From assembly GCF_963921235.1 (NCBI RefSeq), contig NC_086097.1:44828001-44892000 (forward strand): 64,000 nt of DNA, in the 5' to 3' direction. Below the pieces are notes generated by a model, which was not told where the DNA came from, searched no databases, and was given only the letters and a program-made list of their open reading frames with translations. Positions within the stretch are counted from its first letter, which is position 1; every line of letters starts with the position of its first letter. The translations under genes and the position numbers were made by a program. Positions 22,995 to 57,353 of the stretch are shown piece after piece. This stretch comes from Mobula hypostoma (lineage: Eukaryota).

Positions 22995-23835
22995 GTTTCC
23001 AAAGTTCAAAGTTAGTTTATTAACAAAGTACATATATGTCACAATATACAACCACGAGTTTCAATTTCTTGTGTGTATACTTAATAGAATAAATGTTGAA
23101 TAAAATGTTGAAAGGCATGGACAGAGTGGATGTGGCAAAGTTGTTCCCCATGGTGGGAGAGTCTAGTACGAGAGGGCATGACTTAAGGATTGAAGGGTGC
23201 CCATTCAGAACGGAGATGTGAAGAAATTTTTTTAGTCAGAGGGTGGTGAATCTATGGAATTTGTTGCCACGGGCGGCAGTGGAGGTCAAGTCATTGGGTG
23301 TATTTAAGGCAGAGATTGATAGGTATCTGAGTAGCTAGGGCATCAAAGGCTATGGTGAGAAGGCGGGGGAGTGGGACTAAATGAGAGAATGGATCAGCTC
23401 ATGATAAAATGGCGGAGCAGACTCGATGGGCCGAATGGCCGACTTCTGCTCTTTTGTTGTATGGTCTAATAACAATCATAATAAAATTAGTGAAAGACCA
23501 CACTACCTTGGGAATTCACCAATGTGCAAAAGAAAACCAACTGTGCAAATACAAAAAGAAAGAAATAATGATAATAATAAATAAATAAGCAATAAATATC
23601 GAGGACATGAGATTTGAAAGTGAATCCATAAGTTGTGGGAACATTTCAATGATGGGGCAAGTGAAGTTGAGTGAAGTTATCCCTCTGCTTCAAGAGATAA
23701 TAACTGTTCCTGAACCTAGTGGTGTGAGATCTGAGGCTCCTGCACCTTCTTTCTGATGGCAGCAGTGAGAAGAGAGCATGACTTCAGAGTTGGGGGAGGG
23801 GTTGCCCTCTGTTGATGGATGCTGTTTTCCTGTTG
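22995..23835 (-). mobile_element. Rex/Babar 3' end (minus) with a young plus-strand CR1 3' end nested at about 23105-23470
   Basis: ttcaaagttagtttatt tail in reverse; inner CR1 tail gactcgatgggccgaatggccgacttctgctc retains CpGs. Confidence 0.75.
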
Positions 23836-26800
23836 CTTTTAGACCATTTGTGCTGAAAGGTATTGGAAAGAATATTACATAGGTGAGAAGTTACCCAAGT
23901 GGCAAAGAAACAGTATAGAGAACAGTCCATGCTTATTAGAAATGGGATAAAAAACATCAAGCTGCATAAGCAAAACATGGGTTGAACTAGAGCCCAGTCT
24001 TCTGTCTTCGATTTCTGCAATAGATGACTGGTTCGTCTGCATCATTAGTATGTCTTTTCAGCCTATAGGAATTGTACCAGTGCATTTGAAATCTTTTGTG
24101 TTTTAGAAATGGTTTGTAATTTGAAAATGTTTCAGATAGAAATAGTTTGTGAGTTTTAAATGTGTTTTAAGAATATTGTTTGGATTTAAATGTGTATCAC
24201 TGAAAATAAATGAACTGTAAACTATTTTGCTAGCTGGAAATATCTTCTTCTTGGTAGGGATGGAATTCCCACCATTTAAATAGTGGGTACTGGCAGCTAA
24301 TCTTGCCGAGGAGAATAAACAGTAAAGTGAATTAGTTTTTGAAGATTCAGTACTTAAAGTATAACCTCCCTTTAGTGAGGGTACCCATAACTACTTATTT
24401 TCGATAGGGCTTAAGGTCTTTGTTTGATTAAGAACTTTGCAGTCAGCAAACCCAATACCACCATACCAGAGGAACTGAAAAAGCCTGGAATTACAATATT
24501 CCTGGCTCTATTGAAGATTTATATGAGGCCAGCCTGAATCTTCAGATGTGGAAGATTCTTTGGAAAAATTCTGAAACCACTTCTTGAGTTACCTCATCTG
24601 CTGTGAACTTACATCAGTTAGTGTCTTGTTAGTGCACAACTTGTGAGTCTCTCAATGATTCCACACAGAACCTCAAGCCATCATTTTCTAAACAGTTAAC
24701 AATTCCATCTCCTCAGAATGCTTCCTCCACAGCCTCTAATCACATACAATAAAGTTGCACACCCAAGTAGTAATTCATTTGACAACTTTCCGATATACAG
24801 CAATACAGCTCCTTGTCACATCGATCACTTTGACACTGAGTTGCACAAATGAAAATGAAATGAATGGTTTGCAGAACACCTCCATTCAGAGCACAGAGGC
24901 ATTTCTAAGCTTCCAGTCATATTGACCTCTTGATATTTGGCCTCTTCCAATGAAGATCAATGTGCTCAAGAAAACATATTACACTCTTTTGGATTCAACA
25001 CTGTCTTTAACAGCATTTGACATTTTGCATTTCAGTAGAAACAAAGCATTCCTTTAATAATTATTCTAGTAGTCACATATTCACCACATTGATCATTTTC
25101 TCCCTTCCACAATCCATTATTTCCCTCTTTCACCTTAAATTATCAACTGTCTTTTAAAAATACCTTACATCCTTCCAAAGATCTTCCCTTTTGATCTCGT
25201 CTCCCCTCCCCCTTTTTAATGCAGCTTAAAATTTATTTATATTTAGCTTTTCTCATCTCTGATGAAAGGCTGTTGACCTAAAGTATCAATTCTGTTTTCC
25301 TCTCTACATAAGCATTGCAGAATGTTATGTTTTAAATAATTAAAGTGATCGCTGCCCCTGGTATGATAAGATGGACTCTTGACCTCAATCTACCTCTTGT
25401 GACCTTGCATCTAAACCAAAACCAAGAAAACAAAATTAATTGTCATTTCTTCTTGGTTTATGCTAGCTTTTGAAACCACTCAGAAATTGTAACAGAGTAG
25501 ACTTCATAGATGAATCTTCCATTATAAAGTTTTTTCCCTTAAGATTACAACATTCTTTACTTCATTACAACTCATTAACAGTTTTCCTCATTGTAAGTAA
25601 TTGTAGAAGTTGAAAACACTTAAAAAATTATAGAAACACAGACCGTTTCACCTCAGGCACAGCAGAAAACATGGCTGTTTTCTTTTTATACACAGCAAAC
25701 CTTTAATGAGGATATACATCTTTATACTGTCATGCAAAAGTATTCATATGACTTTGACTAATCACCAATTTATGAAAATTATTGTTAGATATAGCCTAAC
25801 AGTCTATGTGCAAAATGCACTGTCACTCTAGGTCACCAACATTAAACACAACACAGAGTAAGAATGATGGCAACATTGATAGTAGACTGTGGAACTTCTA
25901 CATTTCAAAGGGAACTTTAAAATAAATCTGTATGGGTAGCCAACATAATGTTGATAACTGTTACAGGTCAAAGCTTATTGCTGGATATTGTATTAACAAA
26001 ATGAGTTAACCTCATAAAATTGTTGGCATGCAATACCATATATATATATAACACTATGCTAAATTATACTTTTGATATATAATGGAATGGAATTCCCATT
26101 ACTTTTAATGGAATTTCCTTCATGGCACAAGTATAGAATTGTCGTTCTTCCTCACATTGCAAAGTAGAATTTGTGGCTGAAACCTGAAGAACATAGCAGT
26201 GAAATTCAAATAAGATGGATAAGTGTTAATAAGATCAACAAAGAAAATTAACCAATGCCAATTTACAGCAATGCAATTTACTAAATAGATCCATGGTTTC
26301 CTGATCAGATTAAATGTCATTTAGTATAATAAAATTGTACAACTATAATTTGAATTAACTACACAGGCAAAATAATTTCTGGAACCAAAACCAATAGCTG
26401 AGAGACAGTAATATATTCAAAAGATTAATTACTCAACAATGAAATGACAATACTGAATTTAAAAGGTTCAATTCTATTCACATAAAGAATATTCCAGAAA
26501 GGACGGTAGGATTAACTCAAACATCAATTCTCAAATAATTACAAAACCTGCTACAGGTATTATATTAGTCTTCAGGATGCCAGCAGTTAACCTTTATAAA
26601 AGAAATTAATTCTGCTGTAAAGGAAATTCAGCATTCTAGAAATGAAAATCATGACAACATGAACTCAGGAACAAATTCCATTGGGACAATGAGCAGTGTA
26701 CATAAAAACATAAACTTGCAACCAACGGGAAGTCATCTCACCCAAAGTGCACAGGCAGTCCACCGTAAGGCTTCCTCAAGTCACTTAAGTCAAGTGGATC

Positions 26801-27088
26801 TACGTTGCAGGATGATTTTTTTAATGTGTGCTGATGTTAAGTTGATATTGACAATAAACATCAAGTATATGAACCAGTTTTAACACCTAATCCTCTGGAT
26901 GAAGTACATGATTAGAAATATTGCAGTATCAAATCAGTGAACTGTCGGACGTATACTGGAATAGTAAGATCAGGTATTTCCCAGTTGTCACTTTCCATGT
27001 AGTTTATGCAGCAATTAATACTGAACATTCAAAATTAATATATCAGAGCAACAGAAACTATTTAAAGTGCAAATCCTGTGTCAGTTAC

Positions 27089-27100
27089 CTACAAAATATT
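27089..27100 (-). CDS. EVL: Candidate 12-nt EVL microexon (E/K-Y-F-V), symmetric phase 1
   Basis: gtacttttctgcag|AATATTTTGTAG|gtaact. Frame-preserving, in a repeat-poor island downstream of the EVH1 exon. Confidence 0.55.
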   Translation of the reverse strand, partial: NIL

Positions 27101-27767
27101 CTGCAGAAAAGTACACGACTACAGTGGCAAGACCAGGAACAGAAGCAGTGACAGATGTACTCCCTGCTGAGCATGATGTGATCAGGTAGGGCTTGTCTGC
27201 TATACACCTGACATAATACATAGTATCTAATACTCCACCAAATGTCAAAGATAAGCCATCAATGTAACTGATACACTGCCAGAACAGAAACTCTAAGTGT
27301 ATTGTCAATAATTCAGTAGAAGCTATATAAAAAAAATCCAATATTCTAAATGGCTTACCTTAATCATGAAACAACAAGCTTTCTAATGGGGAATGCAATT
27401 ACGGACTGTCAGCTACAGACAAAAATTGCCTGAGCTTATTACATTATTTCACTTAACAGTCAGTTAAAAAATCCAAATATTATCAAGTGACATTGCTTCA
27501 AATTCAGAGATCATGAACAAACCATGTATATTTATAATATTAAAAATAAATCAGTTAGGAAACACTTCAAGTCTTTGTTATTAAACAAGAGTAACACCAT
27601 AATGAACAAAGTTAAAACTATTCTAGCAGATTACAGCTTGAATGTGCATCCCCCCTTCTTATTCTGGCTTCTTCACCTTTTACTCCAGTCCCGATGAATG
27701 GTCTCGTCCCGAAATGTCGACTGGAAATTTCCATAGATACTGCCTGACCTGCTGAAATTCTCCAGCA

Positions 27768-29450
27768 TCTTTTCATCATCAGTGGGGACGGGAGAAGTTC
27801 CGGAGGATTGGAGGGTTGTGGATGTTGTTCCTTTATCCAAGAAAGGGAGTAGAGATAGCCCAGGAAATTATAGACCAGTGAGTCTTACCTCAGTGGTTGG
27901 CAAGTTGATGGAGAAGATCCTGAGAGACAGGATTTATGTACATTTGGAGAGGTATAATATGATTAGGAATAGTCAGCATGGATTTGTCAAAAGCAGGTTA
28001 TGCTTTACAAGCCTGATTGAATTTTTTTGAGGATGTGACTAAACACATTGATGAATGAAGAGCAGTAGGTGTAGTGTATATGGATTTCAGCAAGGCATTT
28101 GATAAGGTACCACATGCAAGGCTTATTGAGAAAGTAAGGAGGCATGGGATCCACGAGGACATTGCTTTGTGGATCCAGAACTGGCTTGCTCACAGAGAGC
28201 AAAGAGTGATTGTAGACGGGTCATATTCTGCATGGAGGTCGGTCACCAGTGGAGTGCCTCAGGGATCTGTTCTGGGACCCTTACTCTTTGTGATTTTTAT
28301 AAGTGACCTGGATGAGGAAGTAGAGGTAAACACGAGGAATTCTGCAGATGCTGGAAATTCAAGCAAAACACATCAGGGTTGCTGGTGGGTGCGGCGGGCT
28401 GGGCGGCATCTCTGGGAGGAGGTGCAGTCGACGTTTCGGGCCGAGACCCTTCGTCGGCTGTGCCTCTTCCTAGAGGTGCTGCCTGGCCTGCTGTGTTCAC
28501 TGGCAACTTTGATGTGTGTTGAGGAAGTGGAGGAATGGGTTAGTAAGTTTGCTGATGACACAAAGGTTGGAGGTGTTGTGGATAGTGTGGAGGGCTGTCA
28601 GAGGTTACAGCAGGACATTGATAGGTTACAAAACTGGGCTGAGAAGTGGCAGATGGAGTTCAACCCAGATAAGTGTGAAGTGGTTCATTTTGGTGGTCAA
28701 ATATGATGACAGAATATAGTATTAATGGTAAGACTCTTGGCAGTGTGGAGGATCAGAGGGATCTTGGGGTCCGAGTCCATAGGACGCTCAAAGCAGCTGC
28801 GCAGGTTGACTCTGTGGTTAAGAAGGCATACGGTGTATTGGCCTTCATCAATCGTGGAATTGAATTTAGGAGCCGAGAGGTAATGTTGCAGCTATATAGG
28901 ACCCTGGTCAGACCCCACTTGGAGTACTTTGCTCAGTTCTGATCGTCTCACTACAGGAAGGATATGGAAACCATAGAAAGGGTGCAGAGGAGATTTACAA
29001 GGGTGTTGCCTGGATTGGGGAGCATGCCTTATGAGAATATGTTGAGTGAACTTGGCCTTTTCTCCTTGGAGCAACAGAGGATGAGAGGTGACCTGATAGA
29101 TGATGAGAGGTATTGATCGTGTGGATAGTCAGAGGCTTTTTCCCAGGGCTGAAATGGTTGCCACAAGAGAACATAGGTTTAAGGTGCTGGGGAGTAGGTA
29201 CAGAGGAGATGTCAGGGGTAAGTTTTTTACTCAGAGAGTGGTGAGGGCGTGGAATGGGCTGCCGCAACGGTAGTGGAGGTGGATACAATAGGGTCTTTTA
29301 AGAGACTTTTGGATAGGTACATGGAGCTTAGAAAAATAGAGGGCTATGGGTAAGCCTAGTATTTCAAAGGTAGGGACATGTTCAGCACAATTTTGTGGGC
29401 CAAAGGGCCTGTATTGTGCTGTAAGTTTTGTATGTTTGTATGTATGTATA
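27768..29450 (+). mobile_element. CR1 LINE RT + 3' end, 5'-truncated, relatively young
   Basis: NYRPVSLTSVVGK, MDFSKAFDKV, GVPQGSVLGPLLF, SKFADDTK, RPHLEY; (tatgt)-like tail near 29430-29448. Confidence 0.93.
28327..28519. mobile_element. Penelope-derived inverted pLTR (hairpin) insertion within the CR1 RT, 14-bp TSD
   Basis: TSD tgaggaagt(a/g)gagg at 28313-28326 and 28520-28533. Left arm matches 12226-12350 and right arm matches 30718-30783. Confidence 0.9.
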
Positions 29451-30174
29451 AATTTCTAAAGCAGTGCTACTGTCATTAACTTAAAACATGTAGAATTTCT
29501 CGTCTCACTGAGGAATATTATACAATGGTGGTATGGTAATACAATAGTACTATGCAATGGCATGATGATTTCTCCAGATTGTACACAATTATGTTCAATC
29601 ATTCCCAGGTATCCCAAAATATCTGGCAGAATCTAATGTTAATATTTATATGCACTCTAAGCAATTTTGAACACATAAATAAACTCAGTGGGAATGAAGA
29701 CTAATATTTAATTGGTATGGCTTTCAATAATAATCAAATTATGTCAGTGGGTGTAGCACTTTCTAGAAATGTGAAGGAAACGTCTGAAACAACAATTAAA
29801 TTACTATGTACATTAGAACTGCCAAAACCTGTGTTGCAGTCTTATCTTGGTACATCACTCAAGGAAATAAAAATAACAACAACTGCAGATGCTGAAGTTC
29901 TGAGAGAAAAAGAGAAAATGCTTGGGGCACTTGTAGAAAGAGTAGCAATATTAATGTTGTAAATTGAAGACATATTATTAAATTCTCTGTTGAAATAGCT
30001 TTTGACCTGAAATTCTTACATCAGTTACCTGCATTAAATTCAGCAAAACAGGACACTAATACAGTCCAGGAACAGGAAAGGAAGTTCTGATGTAGGGTCC
30101 ATGACTTGAAACTTAAACTATTTTACTTTATGCAGCTGCTGTCTCACCTTCAGAGTTATTTGAACTTTTTTTTT

Positions 30175-30820
30175 ACGCTCTGTCCGCCGGAGAAAGCAGG
30201 ATCTCCCAGTGGCCACACATTTTAATTCCACGTCCCATTCCCATTCTGATATGTCAATCCACGGCCTCCTCTATTGTCAAGATGAAGCCACACTCAGGTT
30301 GGAGGAACAACACCTTATATTCCGTCTGGGTAACCTCCAACCTGATGGCATGAACACTGACTTCTCTAACTTCCGTTAATGCCCCACCTCCCCTTTGTAC
30401 CCCAACTGTTATTTATTTTTTATTATTATTAATAATTTTTTTTCTCTCTCTCCTTTTTCTCCCTCTGTCCCTCTCATTATACTCCTTGCCCATCCTCTGG
30501 GCTTCCACCCTCCCCCTTTCTTTCTCCCTAGGCCTCCCATCCATCCCATGATCCTCTCATATCCCTTTTGCCAATCACCTGTCCAGCTCCTGGCTCCATC
30601 CCTTCCCCCTCCTGTCTTCTCCTATCATTTCAGATCTCCCCTTCCCCCTCCCACTTTCAAATCTCTTACTAGCTCTTCTTTCATTTAGTCCTGACGAAGG
30701 GTCTCGGCCCGAAACATTGACTGTACCTCTTCCTAGAGATGCTGCCTGGCCTGCTGCATTCACCAGCAATTTTTATGTGTGTTGCTTGAAATTCCAGCAT
30801 CTGCAGATTTCCTCGTGTTC
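30175..30820 (+). mobile_element. Penelope-like element 3' end (GIY-YIG end + pLTR)
   Basis: Reverse complement closely matches 12225-12830; flanked on both sides by aactttttt (probable TSD). Confidence 0.88.
30687..30722 (+). ncRNA. Minimal type I hammerhead ribozyme motif in a Penelope pLTR
   Basis: agtc-CTGACGA-aggg-tctcgg-ccc-GAAA-catt-gact: CUGANGA and GAAA core boxes, short stem II, agtc/gact stem I. Minimal hammerheads are an established feature of PLE pLTRs. Confidence 0.7.
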
Positions 30821-32012
30821 AACTTTTTTGAGTTTAGTAAAGCACTCTTCCTCTCGTTCTTGATATTTATCGCTTATCTATCTATTTATTTATTTATTTT
30901 CTTTTTTCCATTTGCATTTGCATAGTTTGTTGTCTTTTGCACATTGGCTGCTTGTCTGTCTTATTAAATGCCGTGTTTCATTGATTCTATTATGTATCTT
31001 GGATTTACTGTTTATGCCCGTAAGAAAACAAATCACAGGAGTGTAGATGGTGACATATACAGTATTTATATCGATAATAAATTTAACTTGCACTTTGAAT
31101 TTTGAATAGTTAAAATTTTTCAAATACTGATTGCTACTTCACACTTAACTAATCTAAACTACTAAACAAGTTTAAGATAACAATGTTTTAACCTAAGTCT
31201 CAAACTTAGTATTCCTTGTCATGCTGAAACTTTCTGGCCAGGCAAGATCCTTCTACAAGCAGTGTTGAAGACTCAGTTTTCACATGTGAGTCATGGTTCA
31301 TTTAGAAACCTGTTCTAGTAAACATATGGTAAAACATTATGAGTTTTACAATTTTCACATTAGCTTTAGGATATAAACGTTTTTTTAAAAAAATTTAAAT
31401 TTCAGCACATAATGAAATCAAATTAGATCAGTGCTTTCTCAGATATGTTTCAAGATCTAGATTGGTGAAGTAGTATTTAAATTAATCAAAGAAAAGGTCT
31501 CTATAAATCCAGTTTGAAATTCATGAATCATTTACTTCACCCTCATCTGAACCAAGGAGCACTGTAACTATTTTTGGCCCTCATGTCACTATCAATTCTT
31601 GGTACTGAATTTGGTAATATACATGGTGAACATTCACACAAAATTGTGTCAAAAGTCAAAGTTTAAATTCTCTGAAAATATGTTAATTTTAATGATTACT
31701 GTCCATAGCAATACAATTTATTGATATTTATTGCTAATCTGATTTTCAAAATTATTTGCAACAAATGACACATGCAATTCAGCAATCAACAGGGTAACAA
31801 ATAAGATATTCACACAGAAATAATTTTGGATTCCTTTCCCCACAAAATAACACTCTATTAACCAGTAACTTATTCAACAACTAGAAAAACCAATCCCAAA
31901 TTTTCTAAACTTTACATTTATAATACAACACTTGTTTACAATATGTCAATTTCATCAATATATCTCCCTTACTCTGCTCAATTATTTTTGCTTTGTAGAA
32001 GACTTCACTTAC

Positions 32013-32165
32013 TACGTAAGGTAATTGTCATCCGACTAACCCTCCGATTATGGTCCTTCTGAGCTTGTTGAACTGACGTTTTCTGTGATAAGCTTTGTCT
32101 TTGATTTTCAATATTAACAGAACGTTTCTTTTTGAACAAGTTTGTTTCTTTCATTCTGATCACTT
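32013..32165 (-). CDS. EVL: Candidate EVL cassette exon, 153 nt, symmetric phase 1
   Basis: taag|AAGTG...CGTA|gtaagt. Open in the EVL frame: EVIRMKETNLFKKKRSVNIENQRQSLSQKTSVQQAQKDHNRRVSRMTITLR. Five retained CpGs, four in Arg codons. Weak AAG acceptor (NAGNAG). Confidence 0.5.
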
Positions 32166-32899
32166 CTTATTTAGAGTCATAAAACATGTACTACTGAAGT
32201 TGAGTCCACAAGGAACTAACTACACTGGAAGCATAAGATTAAGCATAGGCAGGAAAATCCCATGTTTAGCAGACTCCTTCTCAACTCCTCTACTTAGAGG
32301 AAAATGGCTCAGAATGGCTTCATTACAGCTAAGGATCATAAAGCTGTTTGGATATTTTAGAACAGCATCCTTCCAATCAAATTGTCAGTGACGAGAGAAG
32401 CTGACATCAATCCTTATGAGCCATATATGTATTATACAGGGCAGTTTGCAGATGGTAAGAAACTGGAGAAGGGGCTTACAAGTCAGGTCCTGTTCAAGAA
32501 GCATCAACGTCACATGTCACTTGTCAGGCTAAAATGTGGCAGAGTTCAAAAGTCAAACACTTAAATAAAGAAAATGTATGACAAATTCTTGGGTGAAAGA
32601 GAATTTAAATGTGCGTGTAGAAAAATAGACAAGAAATAATGTCATAAAGCAGCACATCCAGGACAAAGGCAACTTATTTAAACTTTTGATACATAATGCA
32701 GAACCTGTAAATATTAGGTCATTCTTACTCAAAAGAGAACATTACACCCATGCTGCTGTCAGTTATGCACTGCTGGTATTTTATGGCAAAGCTAGTTCAA
32801 CAGTATGTGTATACTGAGGGTGGAATGCTTCCTTGGAACTTTACAGTTGACAATTGTTAATTCCTGCAACAGTACAGTGATGGATAAATGGGATGGTAT

Positions 32900-33870
32900 A
32901 AGTTACAGCATGGCTAACAGAGTTTTGGAAAGTATCGAGTTCATACTCAAAATGCGTCCCAATTGCCACTTCATTACTTGACCTGCCTTGTTCCCTAAGA
33001 GGACATCCAATATTGCTCCTTCCCAAGTAGGTTCCTCTATATATTGTGAGGAAAATGTCTTGGACATACTGCAAAAGTTCCACCGTTTGTGCTCTGGGTG
33101 GCCCGGTCGATACTGAGAAAATTGAAATCTCCCACCATCACTATCCTACTCTTCTCATGCAGTTTCTTGACATATCTGCTCCTCAAGTTCCCACTGACTA
33201 TTAAGCAGGGATCTATATTATAGCCCTACCAAAGAGACCATCCCCTTCTTATTTCTGAGTTCTAGCCAAATGGCCCTGTTAGATGATCCCACAAGAATAT
33301 TGCCTCGAAACACTGCTCTAATGTTCTCCTGTGTCAAACAAAATAACACCCTCTGTACTCTTTAACATGAGATTGTGAAAATGCAGGAAATATTGAACAA
33401 CACACACAAAATGAGTTCCACCAGCACTCTGTGTGTGTGTTACCCCCTCTACTCTTACCTGTTCCTCTGACACACCTAAAGCATCGATATGCCAGAACAT
33501 TGAGTTATCAGTCCTGTCATCCTCTGAGCCACATTTGTGTTATGGCCAGAATATCCCAGTCCATAGAGACAATCCATGCCCTCAGTTCATCTACTTTCCT
33601 CTTAAGCTACATGCATTGAAAGAAATGCAATTTAAAGCAGTACTCCTAACTGCCCTTTTGACTATAATCATGGCCCTGTCTTCTCATTGACTTTGCTCTC
33701 TCGAGTCCCACCACTTTGCCAATCTAACTTAATCCCTTCCTGGTGGCAAAAGCAAATTTCCTCCCTTGGATATAGGTTATCCTCCAGTTTAAATGCAACA
33801 CATTCCTCTTGCACAGGTCACCTCTACACCAGAAGAGATCCCAATGATCTAAGAACCTGAACCTCTGTCC
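32900..33870 (-). mobile_element. Old CR1 5' region (ORF1/APE remnants)
   Basis: Reverse reads ggtgggagatttcaatttt (GDFNF); ORF 32841-33083 resembles the CR1 endonuclease region. Confidence 0.6.
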
Positions 33871-36800
33871 TCTGCAGATACTTTAATGGTTAGATTACCT
33901 GTGTTCCAATCACATAGAATCTAATTAGTGACTTTAATCATTTTGGTACTGTGCCAGGAGCAGAAATATGGTCGAAGGACCCCTTATAAGGTGATTTGAG
34001 TAACGATGTGGCACTGATTTTGTGACTCAACCACACATTCAAACACCTGGGAGTAAAAAAGAAAGTTGGAGGTAGGATTGAGCAGAACAATTAAACAAAA
34101 ACTTTTGACAGTGATAAGGAAGATTCTAAGGATAAATGGCTTTATTTAAGAAGGGAGAATGTTTCACATGCAGGCCAGCAAAGAAAGATAATCAATGAGA
34201 GTGATCTGGAAGTCAGATTCATGGACCACACAATTCCTTTAGGAAAGAAAATATATTTGTAAGATGATCAAGTGAAAACAAAATAAAACTGAAAATACTT
34301 TGCATCTTTTAATGTCTTTTAAGGGGTTGCACATTCACTGTTTAACCATCAGATGGCAGTGAATCACGACTATCAAAGGAACAGGGAAGAGTTATTAATA
34401 GAATGGGCAGAACTTCAATAGCTTGTATGGGATTAACTACTCATCATCCCTAGCTAGCTGGTTTACTTAACCACTGAAGCTGAAAAATCTGAAGTACAAA
34501 CAAGACAGCATTAGCATGAAGTGATATATTATTAATTTTTTTGTTTGAAGTAATCTTTTTATTTGCACTCTTCAGTTACAGTTTAACAATTTACTATAAT
34601 AGAATATACTGTACCTTCTCCATCGACTCTGAATATTGGAACATGCTTGGTTTCTTTCCAGATAAGAATTGAAATCTATTTTTCCTTTATAATTGATGAG
34701 AGTAGGCTGAGCATTGTAACAATGACCTTGCCCCATCTTCATGCATGCATTTTCTACATGTATGTCCAAAAATGCATATTTTGAAAATAAACAGCCTGTA
34801 ATTGACTGTGATCCTGCTGCATTGACAAAAGTCCTAAACTTCACAGCTAGGGAATGCCTCAGGAAGTACAGAAAATTGTGAGCTAACAATTATGCTTACA
34901 GCTAAGCATTGACAAAATATTTTAATTTCAGTGAACGAATATCTTTCACCTATCATTATATGCTCCTATTTTAAGATGATGAGTTGTTACTTCATAATGC
35001 TAAAATGTGTCTTAATGTCAGCTATTTGAAACTTTGATTAATTTATTTAATTGCTTACTGTTAACAACCCTAATCAAATTCTAAATTAAAATGAAGATAT
35101 ATTTTGGAATATATCTCAATTTGTTTCTATATGATATTCAGAGTGTAGATTGATGAAGAAAATAAATCATTAGTAAGGTATTACAGTAGTTCTTTTAATG
35201 GCACTTAGCGTTGTGAAGTCCCAAAAGAGTCATTGTGTATTTAAACTAGACTTGGATAAAGCCATAGGAGCAAAGCATTCTTTACTTGTCAGATCTTCAA
35301 ACAAAAACATGGATCTTGGTCTTAAATCTTAGCACAATGTTTTAGCTTAAGATGTTCTGAGATGACTGGTCCACAATTGTTCCCTTCCTTTTTGAGGAAA
35401 CACTAAATTTGAACTCAACTTTTCTCTTGTAGCTGTGAAGTATTTTCCAACTTTCAAAAAAATGTTTAAAAACTTAACTCATTTTCCTTATTAGGTAAAA
35501 TACTCCACCTTTCATGTTAAGAGCTATGTTTGAGGCAATTTGTTTCTACCTGTGACAAAATTTCTAACAAAAACTAAGTGTAAAACTGAAAGCTTTGAGA
35601 AGCAAAAGGAATCTTTACTCTCATATAAACATTTCACTTGATATAACATAGTTTGAAGTAATCCACTTTCGATATAAATATCATCTCGTAGACTGTTATT
35701 CGAGATAATGCTGCATATGGTCTTACTCAAGACATTGTGCAAATATTACTGTCATATTTTTTGAGGAAATATGCCCTACTTCATACTTTGAAGATCCACC
35801 ATGTAACTGATTTTTTTAAATTTAAAAAGTGGTTAGCCACTGGGTGCGGGGTGGTGGAATTGAATCTTGAGTTTATGTTAAAAATTGATGCACACAAACA
35901 AGTGTACGCACACAGAAAATTGTGCCAATTGAATCTTCGCATCTACTCATATTAATTGAAGTTGTAGGAACAGCATTAGTAAACTGGAAGCTAGCATTCG
36001 ATGATTTTAACAGAATTTACAATTGCAGTAATAAAAACCTTGTGAAATAAGGAGAACCAAATCAGCAAAACAAATATACCTACTTTCAAAATTCTATGCA
36101 ACTCAATGATTCTAAAAAAACAAATTTCATCAGCAATGATTTATTTCCCAGAACAATTAGTCCTATCACAACCCAACCAGTTCAAAAGATTGCTTAAGTT
36201 CGGAGAAGAAATAATGCCCATTACAAATTGGACTTAGTAATTTAAACAACTGTTCATCCTCCAAAATCAAATTAATTGCCATCATAATTTACAGTTAACT
36301 ATGGCTTTTACAAACCTTTGAGAATGCTCTCAAATTCCTTTTTTTTTAACATAAGGACACTCAGACATTTAAGATCATTTGGAATATATTTTCTCATGTG
36401 TTAATGAGGAAATGGCACCCCAATGGTTCTGTATTTTTGAATTACTGTAAATTATTCTACTCACTCATAAATTAAGCCGTTTCAAATAATCAAGCTGCAC
36501 TCAGCAATCTTAATTGTATCAAGGATTTTTTTTTACAATGAGTTAGTGAGTTAATAAAATTTAAAAAATTGTTTAAGATGCTACCCTAATTGCTTTGGCT
36601 CATGACTCATCTGATATTTGCTGAGATGCAAATACTTGTCTCACCAAGCACACTTCTGGCTACAATGTGTGTACAGATATCCAAATGTACCCAGAGTGTG
36701 AATCTTTAATGTTCTCCTTTCAATAATTCCAATGTTAAATGCACAGCTTTTACTGAATGCACGCAGCAACCAGAGACAAAGTTGAAAGCACACATGCTGA

Positions 36801-36880
36801 GGTAGCTAAAAATAGCCAGGGTTTTAAAGCTTCTGTAAGATCTGCAGTTTATACACAACAACAACAGTAGATGGCACTCA

Positions 36881-37102
<222 letters not shown>

Positions 37103-37949
37103 CTACAAACAAATACAAATTATATCTTACGAACTGCATTTGTCTTGGGATTGTAAATATGAATCTTTATTTAATTAAAATAACTGTAATAGTGAAAATT
37201 AGCACAAGTTGTAAGTTCAGCATTTGATATTCTGAAATACATTCACTCAATAGAATGGGCCAAATTACAATCATTGCAGCTGGTAGTTCCTAGTTTAGCT
37301 GCTCTTACACAAGTCCTGGACTTATGAAGGTCCACTGTAAGTCTGGAACATGCTGAGCTATTGTTGCTGGTACATACAGTAGGCTGATACTGTTTTGTGA
37401 GATGGGAGAATCTTTTCTTGGTGGGATTTATCAGTATTAAATAGAGAATCTGGCACTCAAATCATTTGTGACTGATATTGAATAACTCATTCAGTGCAAT
37501 GAAGATTTTTAGCCCGGAGATTAGGAGAAAATGGTTTTATTAATTTACTTAGTTACTTTATTTTGTGTTTTAATTGTTTTTGGTCTTGCTGGATTTTATT
37601 ATTTATAGTCATTTCAAATGCTTTCAAATAAATGGAGCATTGGAGACCATTAAAAATTCTGAAACAGCCTCACAAGTTTTGCTCCCAGATTTGCCTCCTC
37701 TTGTCAAAGGCAGCCAGGGTTTTGCAGATTTGGGAGGGTAGACTCAGCAGTTCATCACCAAGATCTACAGGCCCCGGAGACCACACTATATGTTGCTAAA
37801 TGCCACACAGTTATAATGTTCAACCCACTGCATCAGGCCCAGGTAAATTGGAACAAGCTAGATCCAGCATAATTCCAAGGCAGCATAGAGTGCATTGCAC
37901 TAAAGCATGCTTTACACTAGAGCCTAAGGTTGATTTTTTCAGCAATTCT

Positions 37950-38652
37950 TTCCGGACAATTGCTGAGACAATCTGCAGCACCCTTAACATCTTCTGGAAA
38001 ATAAGTCCGGTCAAGAATACCATCTGCTTTGTCAAAGAGGGGGAAAGACCAACAGAACACCAGAAAGCAACTGGGTTGCTCTTCACTGCACAGGACTGGA
38101 AGCTAAAAGCAGACCTGGGAGAACAGCTGCAGTTTCCTCCCCACATCACAGAGACTACATTGCGGCCCAACATTGTGTTGTAGTCCGACTCATTGAAGCA
38201 CGTTCTTACGCTTGAGCTTACCGTGCCGTGGGAAGAACGCACGGAGGAGGCCTACGAGCGGAAAAGAGCCAAGTATGAAGACCTGAAGAACAACTGCTAA
38301 AGAAGAGGCCGGAGAGCAAGGTGTTGGCCTGTGGAGGTCGGGTGTCGTGGCTTTGCAGGCCAGTCGCTCTGCAAAGTATACACTGCACTTGGAATCACGG
38401 GAGAGAGAAGAAGGAGAGCCATTTCTACCACCAGAGATGTAGCAGAGAAAGTGTCAAGATGGCTCTGGATAAAGAGGGCAGATCCGTGGGTCACTGCTAG
38501 GGCGCAGGCCGGGGTCTGTTCAACCCTGGTTGGGTTGCCTGGGCGAGGGTGTATGATGTTGAAAGACCCGAAATACCTGACGACCCCAGGTAACATCACT
38601 GATGATGTGCCCTAGCTTAGCATCATGCAGATGTTTCTATAAGAAGAAGAAG
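37950..38652 (+). mobile_element. HERO-like RLE non-LTR retrotransposon 3' fragment with (AAG)n tail
   Basis: DWKLKADLGEQLQFPPHITETTLRPNIVL*SDSLKHVLTLELTVPWEERTEEAYERKRAKY...PVEVGCRGFAGQSL...SRWLWIKR; ends aagaagaagaag. Clade assignment is from recalled motifs. Confidence 0.75.
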
Positions 38653-40841
38653 TATGAATACTGACGGGACTGAAGAGATAACTCATTGCCCTTCAATATT
38701 GTTGCAAATCTCTATATCTCTAAGACAGGATTTAATTAATATTTAATGTATTATTGGAAAGGCAGAACTTCTGAACACAAAGAACAACCTCAGGACAACA
38801 CTGCACAATTAACTAAGATTTTTATTCCCAAGTCATCTGAAAGGCAATTGAACCCATAATTTTTACTCTGAAGCAAGAATGCTATAAATTATGACTCACA
38901 CAAGAACGAGACTTACAGATGCATACTCACATTTTTATACATATATAGCATTAGAAGTAATGTTAAGAGTAACAGAATGCATGTTTATCATATAATACCA
39001 TATTCAAAAAATCAAAAAGAATGTCAAGGTTATTAAAATAAAAATAATTCCATGATGAATACCCGTGATATTGTACATCCATTCATTAACAACTATAGAG
39101 GAGTATTAACTTGGTTGTTGTGTTGTGCATAATAATATATTTCATCAAGGAAATACCCAGGATAGAGGAATTGAGTGCTTCCAAACATGCCATCACATGA
39201 CCTACAGTGTGCAAGGTTTAGGAGAAGCCAGTGATGAGGGAAAAGGATTATGGATCTTGAGGGATGTCTGGCTGAAGTCAGATATTAGCAAGTGATGTGT
39301 CAGAGCCCTACAATTGGCACATGGTGGGAGGGTGAAACTGGCACTGGGATTGGTTACTGTAGTCTAGGCATTGGGAAAGAGTTGCTACCTTAAGAATCAC
39401 TACCTTAGCAGTCTAAGAATCACTACCTTAAATTGGAGGAGACCAAAGGAAAGTGGAGCAGGAAAGACACAGAGATACTCAGGGTGGACCTATTTAAATT
39501 GAGCAGCTCTAGATCAAGCAAGGCAATTAAAGCTTGGTTGGTCAGAATTTGTCCAATAGTAAGTGCATTTCATAACCCTGTGACCTAATTTTTCCCAGTG
39601 ATGCTCTGATTTTGTACGTATTGCCTATAACTGGGATAAACCAGGTCAGGGATAAGTCTCTCTTGAACAAGTGGATAGGCCTGTAGGCAATAAGCAATAC
39701 ATGAAAAAGATAGGGTTTGATGTAGCACCAACATAATTATGGTCCACATAAAATTATGGATTTTATATGCTTAGCAGTGAAAAGTGGCTGCCCTACAGAC
39801 CTCACCAAACTTCATCTTTCCAGGCCTGTTCCCATGAGTACTGTTGGCAGTGTTCCTCACTGTACGTTTGGAAAGTCGACAAGTCAAAAGTAAATAATAT
39901 TGATGGTTGTCAAAGTTCCCTGAGAGAGTTCCATTAAGAATATTCATGAAATTGTAACACTTTCAATTCCATGATGGAATAATACTTCCCAAAGATTTTC
40001 TGCTAAATTAGTTCCTTATTTCAACAGCAGTGCAGAAATGTTATTAAAACAAAATTAATTAAAAGTAGAACTGCATATTTAAATATGATTAAATAACACA
40101 GCTGAACAATCAGAAGATAGTTTTCTAAGCATAGAGTGCAGGCTATATTTGAAGAAAGAACAAACTTATGATTAGTTTGAAAATGATTAGCAATCTGACA
40201 ACAATGCTGGGAATTAAGGTATTTTCAACTTAGTTTCTTGAATTTGATCTCTTCAATACATAACACTCTCCTGTGGAAATTTACAAATTTGTGCTCAACA
40301 AAAAAGTTAACTATGAAATAATTGTATTATTGGTCATACAGTCTGTTACTAAAAACAAATCAATGAAAAAAGAAATATTGTGGCAGCAATGGACCAAATA
40401 AAATGAAAATAAGGTAGAAATTGGCAGCAATATTAATAAAACATGGTCCACTAATGACTCCTCTATTGCTGGATTTTTCTGCTAACCTCAGAGATCAGGT
40501 TAGCCACGAGTATTTACTGCAAGTCCCGGGAATCCTTCAGTTATTTTAAATATAAATGCTTCCACCACACCTCTATTTCCTTCTGTCAGATCTACAGTAT
40601 CTCCATCATATCTACTCCGATGGAGGACTTGCCAAGATGATCTTTCTTTTTACTTAACTCTAGCCTTCCCTCTACTATAGATAACATGGCTCTATAGATC
40701 ACACCTCAACTATGTCTTGCACCTATGCTTTCACCTGATCTCCTTCCAGCCCAAGTAAGGATAGCATTCTCCTTAATATTGTACCAGCTTCTACATTCAC
40801 CAAGTCTTACTTTAAAATTTAGATCCCACAGTCATAAAAAT

Positions 40842-42125
40842 TAGAACAGTACAACACAGTACATGTGTTGTGCCAATGCTTTAATCTATTCCTAGATCAA
40901 TCTAACCCTTCCCTCCAACATAGCCCTTTGTTTTTCTTTTATCCATGTGCCCATCTAAGAGTCTCTTAAATGTCCCTAATGTGTCTGCCTCTACCACCAC
41001 CTCTGAGAGCACATTCCATGCACCTACCATTCTACGTGTAGAAAACCTACCTCTGATATCCCCCCATACATTCCTCCAAATTCCTGACAGTTATACCACT
41101 TCACATTAGCTATTTCTGCCCTGAGAAAATGTCTCTGGCTGTCCATTCTATCTATGCCTCTTATCAACATGCACAACTCTATCAGGTCACCGTTTATCCT
41201 CCTTTGCTCCAAAGAGAAAACCCTAACTCATTCAACCTATCCTCATAAGACATGCTCTCCAGGCAGAACCCTGGTAATTTTCCTCTACACCTTCTTTAAA
41301 GCTTCACCATCCTTCATATAATAAGGCAACCAGAACTGAACACGATATTGCAAGTGTGGTCTGACCAGAGTTTTATAGAGCTGCAACATACCTCACGGCT
41401 CTTGAATACAATCCCCTGACTAATACAGACCAGCACACTATACACTTTCTTAACCAACTTGTGCGGCAACTTTCAGTTATCTATGGACGTGGACCCCAAG
41501 ATCCCCCTGTTCCTTCACACTGTTGAATCCTGCCATTAACTTGTACTCTGCCTTTAAGTTTGACATTCCAAAGTGAATCACTTCACACTTTTCTGGATTG
41601 AACTCCATCTACCACTTCTTAGCCAAGTTCTGTCTACTATCAATGTCCCTCTTATACCTACAATAACCTTCTACACTATCCATAACACCACCAACCTTCA
41701 TATCATCTGCAAACTTAATAACCCACCTTTCCCCTTTCTCATCCAGGTTGCTTATTAAAATCTCAAAGAGCAGGGGTCCTGCAGAACACCACTGGTCACT
41801 AACCTCCATGCAGAATGTGCTCTGTTACCATCCTCTGCCTTTTGTGGGCAAGGCAATTCTGAATCTATGCAGCCAAGTCTCCCTGGATCCCATGCCTCCT
41901 TACTTTTTGAATGGGTCTACCATAGGGAACTGGTCAAGTGCCTTAACAAAATCCATATACACCAAATTCACTGCTCTGCCATCATTGATATGTTTTGTCA
42001 CTTCCTCAAAAGAACTCAGTGAGGCTCGTGAGACATGATCTGTCCCCCCATAAAGCTACGTTGGCTGTTTCTAATCAAACTATGCTTCCCCAAATGCTTA
42101 TAAATCTTGTCTCTAAGAATCCGCA
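40842..42125 (-). mobile_element. CR1 LINE, 5'-truncated
   Basis: ORF 41609-41809 (VIKFADDMKVGG) and ORF 41024-41212. Confidence 0.88.

Positions 42126-57155: not shown

Positions 57156-57353
<198 letters not shown>

Follow-up and report, generated by a model that had tools for sequence, protein, structure and literature searches.

The window analysed here, a stretch of 64,000 nt of Mobula hypostoma DNA taken in its whole length, carries two EVH1-encoding exons of an Ena/VASP gene on the minus strand. Exon 2 (57171..57339) encodes the first half of the EVH1 domain, and exon 3 (36925..37102) encodes its end and terminates in a phase-1 donor. Judged by these EVH1 exons, the gene is EVL and not ENAH or VASP: the identity of exon 3 is 98% to stingray EVL and ~75% to ENAH, the end of exon 3 matches isoforms of Mobula birostris exactly, and among solved structures the EVL EVH1 domain (1qc6) fits the Mobula protein best. 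Intron 3 occupies 36,924 nt inside the window. Because exon 4 lies beyond the window end, the candidate microexon analysed here falls within intron 3, at least 27 kb from exon 4. The same intron harbors an alternative first exon (coding part 32013..32154, minus strand, phase-1 donor) of an EVH1-less EVL isoform. This internal first exon lies upstream of the candidate, which could join it in frame.

The candidate was proposed in a sequence-only reading of the window as a 12-nt EVL microexon with an acceptor ending in ctgcag and the donor TAG|gtaact. The unit is present as described at 27100..27089 on the minus strand, and its symmetric phase 1-1 agrees with the phase-1 end of exon 3 (37102..36925). 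The inserted peptide had been given as E(K)YFV; because exon 3 ends in phase 1, the insert reads EYFV and the K alternative drops out. EYFV would be added between G117 and G118. Its placement directly after EVH1 holds in the sense that the insert would follow just behind the domain, but the site is ~5 residues past the end of the solved EVH1 constructs, which stop at residues 112–116.

The description of the acceptor region (27101..27160, minus strand) as pyrimidine-rich is accurate for the sequence further upstream, where 70% of positions −60 to −20 are pyrimidines and a weak branch-point-like A occurs at −49, but not for the AG itself, where the U/C run is short and a second AG is found at −20. 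UGC trinucleotides are located at −73, −47, and −29 relative to the candidate acceptor. The upstream AG, 18 nt before the candidate exon, scores 5.93 bits as an acceptor in the weight matrix described below and is itself preceded, at ~11 nt, by a UGC. Its use with the same donor would yield an open, in-frame 30-nt exon (27089..27118, minus strand) adding VVYFSAEYFV, a version for which no supporting transcript was found. The donor (27083..27088, minus strand), GTAACT, has a non-consensus C at +5. No GCATG is present within 300 nt downstream of the candidate, and RNA folding of the region is no better than that of shuffled sequences (z +1.35). The site had also been credited with a setting of roughly 2 kb free of transposable elements. 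Positions 23833–27655 are indeed without within-window repeats, a LINE-like repeat beginning ~555 nt upstream of the candidate exon, but the argument is weak: 31100–40861 is equally without within-window repeats, so that such a setting does not single the site out.

The interest of the unit stems from its resemblance to an alternative exon of ENAH. The statement that ENAH has a 4-residue ++ exon and a 19-residue INV exon after EVH1 is upheld by the accessible part of PMC2898656, according to which exon 3b (++, 4 residues) and exon 3a (INV, 19 residues) lie between exons 3 and 4. The same part of that source documents exon 3b in mouse, in chicken, and in one Xenopus EST, with expression in brain, heart, and other tissues, and links the 4-residue insert to neurons and invasive tumour cells. 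It describes ENAH and EVL as sister genes that have exon 11a/10a in common, lists exon 10a as the sole extra exon of Evl, and treats exon 6 as absent from Evl. The 12-nt exon of mouse Enah rises in neurons, as stated in the available portion of 10.64898/2026.05.13.725022. In human, the ENAH 12-nt exon is absent from Ensembl 70 and ranks among 310 novel micro-exons but outside the 145 brain-specific ones (PMC4317164, available text).

Like ENAH exon 3b, the candidate occupies intron 3 of an Ena/VASP gene just after EVH1, is 12 nt long in phase 1-1, and encodes the residue pattern x-aromatic-aromatic-aliphatic. The ++ peptide appears in ENAH proteins as VFYL or VFFL, and EYFV has BLOSUM62 scores of 5 against VFYL and 8 against turtle VFFL. 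Unlike exon 3b, the candidate sits in EVL, shares 0 of 4 residues with VFYL and 1 of 4 with VFFL, and has no transcript found for it; the comparison covers the exons. A pattern search through 10 kb of intron 3 in one amniote-type ENAH locus (L030) did not find a 3b-like unit.

Paralogy is plausible in view of the rarity of such a match in simulation (below) and of another long alternative exon that EVL has in common with ENAH. In EVL of cartilaginous fishes, coelacanth, and bichir, exon 5 is followed by a long alternative segment rich in proline and serine (P0069, P0003, and P0018 versus P0515). The coelacanth segment can be aligned with ENAH exon 6L (37% identity over 179 residues, E 5e-12); together with the shared exon 11a/10a, this 6L-like exon indicates that alternative exons were present in the ENAH/EVL ancestor.

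The candidate also partly fits the layout of neural microexons. A distal U/C tract, with a median branch distance of 45–47 nt, is characteristic of these exons in the accessible part of PMC12871342, and a distal-tract layout is likewise reported in that of bioRxiv 10.1101/2024.09.17.613571. In common with SRRM3/4-dependent neural microexons (3–27 nt), the candidate has a frame-preserving length, a set-back U/C tract, and an upstream UGC; the combination of UGC and distal tract is built from common features and carries little weight. It differs from them in that its acceptor is strong rather than weak (by the weight matrix described below) and in having the AG at −20 and the C at +5.

Splice sites were scored with an ad hoc weight matrix of splice-site frequencies. 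By this measure, the candidate acceptor reaches 8.86 bits, compared with 6.59 and 6.14 for EVL exons 2 and 3, respectively, and the donor 7.03 bits, compared with 9.05 and 9.10. Among the 1015 open in-frame AG..GT pairs of 3–30 nt in the part of intron 3 inside the window, the candidate ranks third. The two higher-scoring pairs, 12978–12958 (minus strand, 21 nt) and 7342–7331 (minus strand, 12 nt), are probably due to chance; the former falls in a LINE-like stretch of higher GC content. From 20 simulations, 1.55 pairs of matching strength, whatever their length, are to be expected in a simulated intron, and the opposite strand of the real intron holds one. Thus, the splice strength alone is within chance expectation.

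The coincidence of strength, length, and peptide was assessed by simulation, with criteria set after the candidate had been seen: strong sites, a length of 12 nt, and a BLOSUM62 score of at least 5 to VFYL. A joint match arose in 3 of 600 simulated introns under strict site cut-offs, in 9 of 600 when both sites had to be at least as strong as the weakest real site, and in 82 of 600 under loose cut-offs. By these post-hoc criteria, the joint match is uncommon, at ~1 in 70 to 1 in 200. As for the peptide, each intron has 114 random open 12-nt pairs, of which 7.6 attain a BLOSUM62 score of 5; the TAG donor forces the last insert residue to be L, I, or V, and AT-rich DNA abounds in aromatic codons.

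Protein data, which cover annotated proteins and cluster representatives, yielded no EVL with the insert. Of 84 cartilaginous-fish EVL isoforms examined, from 20 named species, 77 have both exons resolved, and 0 of these 77 contain an insert of more than one residue. With a profile built from chicken ENAH++ and Mobula EVL, the best 120 of 2057 representatives of protein clusters were examined, the lowest of them scoring 101.5 bits. Among these 120, 26 carried the insert (20 VFYL and 6 turtle VFFL), all of them amniote ENAH, and none was an EVL with an insert. The score of a simulated ray EVL is 106.3 bits with the 12-nt insert, above this lower end, and 99.6 bits with the 30-nt insert, below it, so the longer version is not detectable there. 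In cartilaginous-fish ENAH, the ++ insert was seen in 0 of 59 isoforms with both exons resolved (67 examined), in annotation that is insensitive to it. Such negative tests are too insensitive to reject a real exon, because annotation misses exons of this kind; in a 286-member bird ENAH cluster, VFYL is present in 1 of 15 listed members.

For transcripts, 4 of 24 sequencing runs, none of the 24 being recorded as RNA, were aligned to 26500–37300; the RNA status of these runs was guessed, their tissue is not given, and assembled contigs drop minor splice forms. For X2 and X6, the whole of the exon-3 depth comes from a single contig, with predicted and observed bin depths in agreement. This contig continues with GT past the donor and then departs from the intron; inclusion of the candidate would give AA or TC. 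We read the exon-3 contigs of X2 and X6 as the skipped form, on the guessed RNA status of the runs. At the candidate itself, the contigs of X2, X9, and X19 are unspliced, and X6 has no coverage. No joint to the candidate appeared among the 15 listed rows, which were flooded by repeat-derived contigs, and neither this nor the missing coverage in X6 is counted as evidence. At 36608–36968 in X9, the depth at the exon-3 donor is 21.2 against 13.2 predicted from one contig; the extra depth, which counts against an unspliced unit, could be an assembly-graph branch from any second continuation. In metagenome contigs, an exact 26-letter pattern had 0 matches. Of 80 metagenome loci with exon-3 relatives, five were vertebrate-like and none of these reached exon 4; their matches to the candidate flanks were limited to chance words of 9–14 letters.

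Conservation of the flanks was compared on listed pieces, that is, the longest kept, at least 88% alike. In X19, where the background consisted of five intron pieces with the exon-3 and internal-promoter pieces left out, the 1127-letter piece over the candidate has 32 differences in 1127 positions (2.8%) against 121 in 2631 (4.6%; p 0.012). In X9, the piece over the candidate has 28 differences in 419 positions (6.7%) against 98 in 1413 (6.9%) across five pieces (Fisher p 0.91). The comparison is capable of detecting constraint, because the piece with the internal promoter is conserved in both runs (X19, p 0.0002; X9, 16/471, p 0.005). Thus, the picture from these whole-piece figures is mixed, with flank conservation raised in one relative and not in another.

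Within the titles, abstract openings, and accessible papers and supplements searched, no EVL intron-3 microexon was found. An EVL exon between exons 3 and 4 is not described in the available text of PMC2898656 or PMC10340426, the latter giving EVL and EVL-I as the only isoforms in that text. These known isoforms arise by alternative splicing of EVL, as the candidate would, but EVL-I, which includes exon 10a, differs in that 21 residues are added in EVH2. As far as the available text of PMC4317164 goes, an EVL exon is in neither the 310 novel human micro-exons nor the 145 brain-specific ones. The EVL microexon was also not found in the supplements of PMC12626420 and PMC7935315, as far as these are accessible, nor in that of PMC12868881. 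The zebrafish neural exon table of PMC12626424 has no EVL exon, and the enah microexon is likewise absent from it. The PMC7821500 supplement, where the EVL microexon was not found, contains no Enah exon either and is hence uninformative. Neither ENAH nor EVL appears in the accessible main text of bioRxiv 10.64898/2026.09.05.749416.

Taken as a whole, these data leave a well-formed and cheaply testable candidate without direct support. We give a slight edge, roughly 0.55, to the candidate being an unspliced look-alike: a pseudo-exon consisting of an intronic AG..GT pair that combines good site scores with an open frame and lies in a long intron rich in AT. The spliceosome would not pick such a unit at a meaningful rate, and it would presumably be absent from the mRNA in all tissues. 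EVL mRNA would then join exon 3 or the internal first exon straight to exon 4 (...QDG-GPAV...), and the skipped form is what the annotation and two sets of contigs contain. The odds are our own judgement. A low prior that EVL alone retained such an exon is about balanced by how rare the match is, and the negative results, weak as they are, tilt the odds against a real exon.

Possible, if doubtful, is that the candidate is a real cassette microexon, a paralogue of ENAH exon 3b inherited from the ENAH/EVL ancestor and lost in the EVL genes of the bony vertebrates studied. The shared intron, length, and phase and the similarity of EYFV to VFYL and VFFL argue for such an origin, as does the rarity of the joint match (3–9 of 600), although the TAG donor leaves L, I, or V as the only options for the last residue, and the AT-rich DNA favors aromatic codons. 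Descent from sister genes that share exons 11a/10a and a 6L-like exon is consistent with it, and so are the UGC, the U/C tract, and the branch-like A, which fit the neural layout, and the rise of the mouse Enah exon in neurons. The raised flank conservation in X19 points the same way, but X9 shows none, and neither transcripts nor proteins containing the insert turned up. The distance to exon 4 is at least 27 kb, whereas human exon 3b lies a few hundred bases from exon 4. Furthermore, all 26 insert-bearing representatives are amniote and 0 of the 59 cartilaginous-fish ENAH isoforms carry the insert; the non-amniote support seen for exon 3b amounts to the one Xenopus EST and to what the accessible part of PMC2898656 says in general terms about gene structure. 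A real exon would have skipping as its default, and SRRM3/4 acting at the U/C tract and UGC would bring about its inclusion in neurons, possibly also in heart. Its four residues would form an aromatic patch in the linker behind EVH1, which could alter ligand preference or domain spacing. We tentatively suggest, with the odds against it, that cartilaginous fishes keep an ohnologue of the ENAH ++ exon in EVL, in which case ++, 6L, and 11a would predate the early vertebrate duplications.

It is unlikely that the candidate is a decaying relic of the ancestral ++ exon, homologous and no longer usefully spliced. Such a history would account for the match in peptide and position together with the missing transcripts and mixed conservation, but intact strong sites and an intact frame would probably not last long without selection, and no outgroup copy was seen. 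Least probable is an independent ray exon of 12 or 30 nt, depending on AG choice, that converged on ENAH 3b in position only: two in-frame acceptors on one donor, the UGC before the upstream AG, and the repeated acquisition of neural exons by the same gene families (bioRxiv 10.64898/2026.09.05.749416, accessible part) are compatible with it, but no transcript attests it, and besides the exon being new, the peptide match would have to be coincidental.

On the preferred reading, that of an unspliced unit, the candidate amounts to an ordinary look-alike within an intron. If it is spliced, it would be an EVL exon not found in the literature searched, yet one more of a known class; it would place the origin of the Mena ++ exon ahead of the ENAH/EVL split and offer a comparative handle on the 4-residue insert. 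Under true paralogy, the diverged set VFYL, VFFL, and EYFV would point to the aromatic pair as the conserved function.

The internal first exon of EVL is a separate feature of the intron. Its peptide differs from the Mobula birostris counterpart at 1 of 48 residues and has no detectable relation to the INV peptide (shuffle p 0.53–0.89). This exon is annotated in Mobula, Hemitrygon, Heptranchias, and coelacanth, and a similar peptide occurs in a sturgeon model. The region upstream of it, to ~32900, is conserved in two relatives, and an X2 contig spans 31945–32140. The EVH1-less isoform keeps the tetramerisation domain and could act as an untargeted or dominant-negative subunit. No paper on this exon was found in the literature search. 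In cartilaginous-fish ENAH, internal starts that omit EVH1 are annotated as well, joined at exon 4 or 5 (P0473, P0475, P0492, P0493, and P0507), in parallel to the EVL internal first exon. Finally, five Hemitrygon EVL isoforms (P0003, P0136, and P0138–P0140) contain one extra Gly at the exon 3–4 junction, which may stem either from tandem acceptors of exon 4 or from a microexon of 3 nt.
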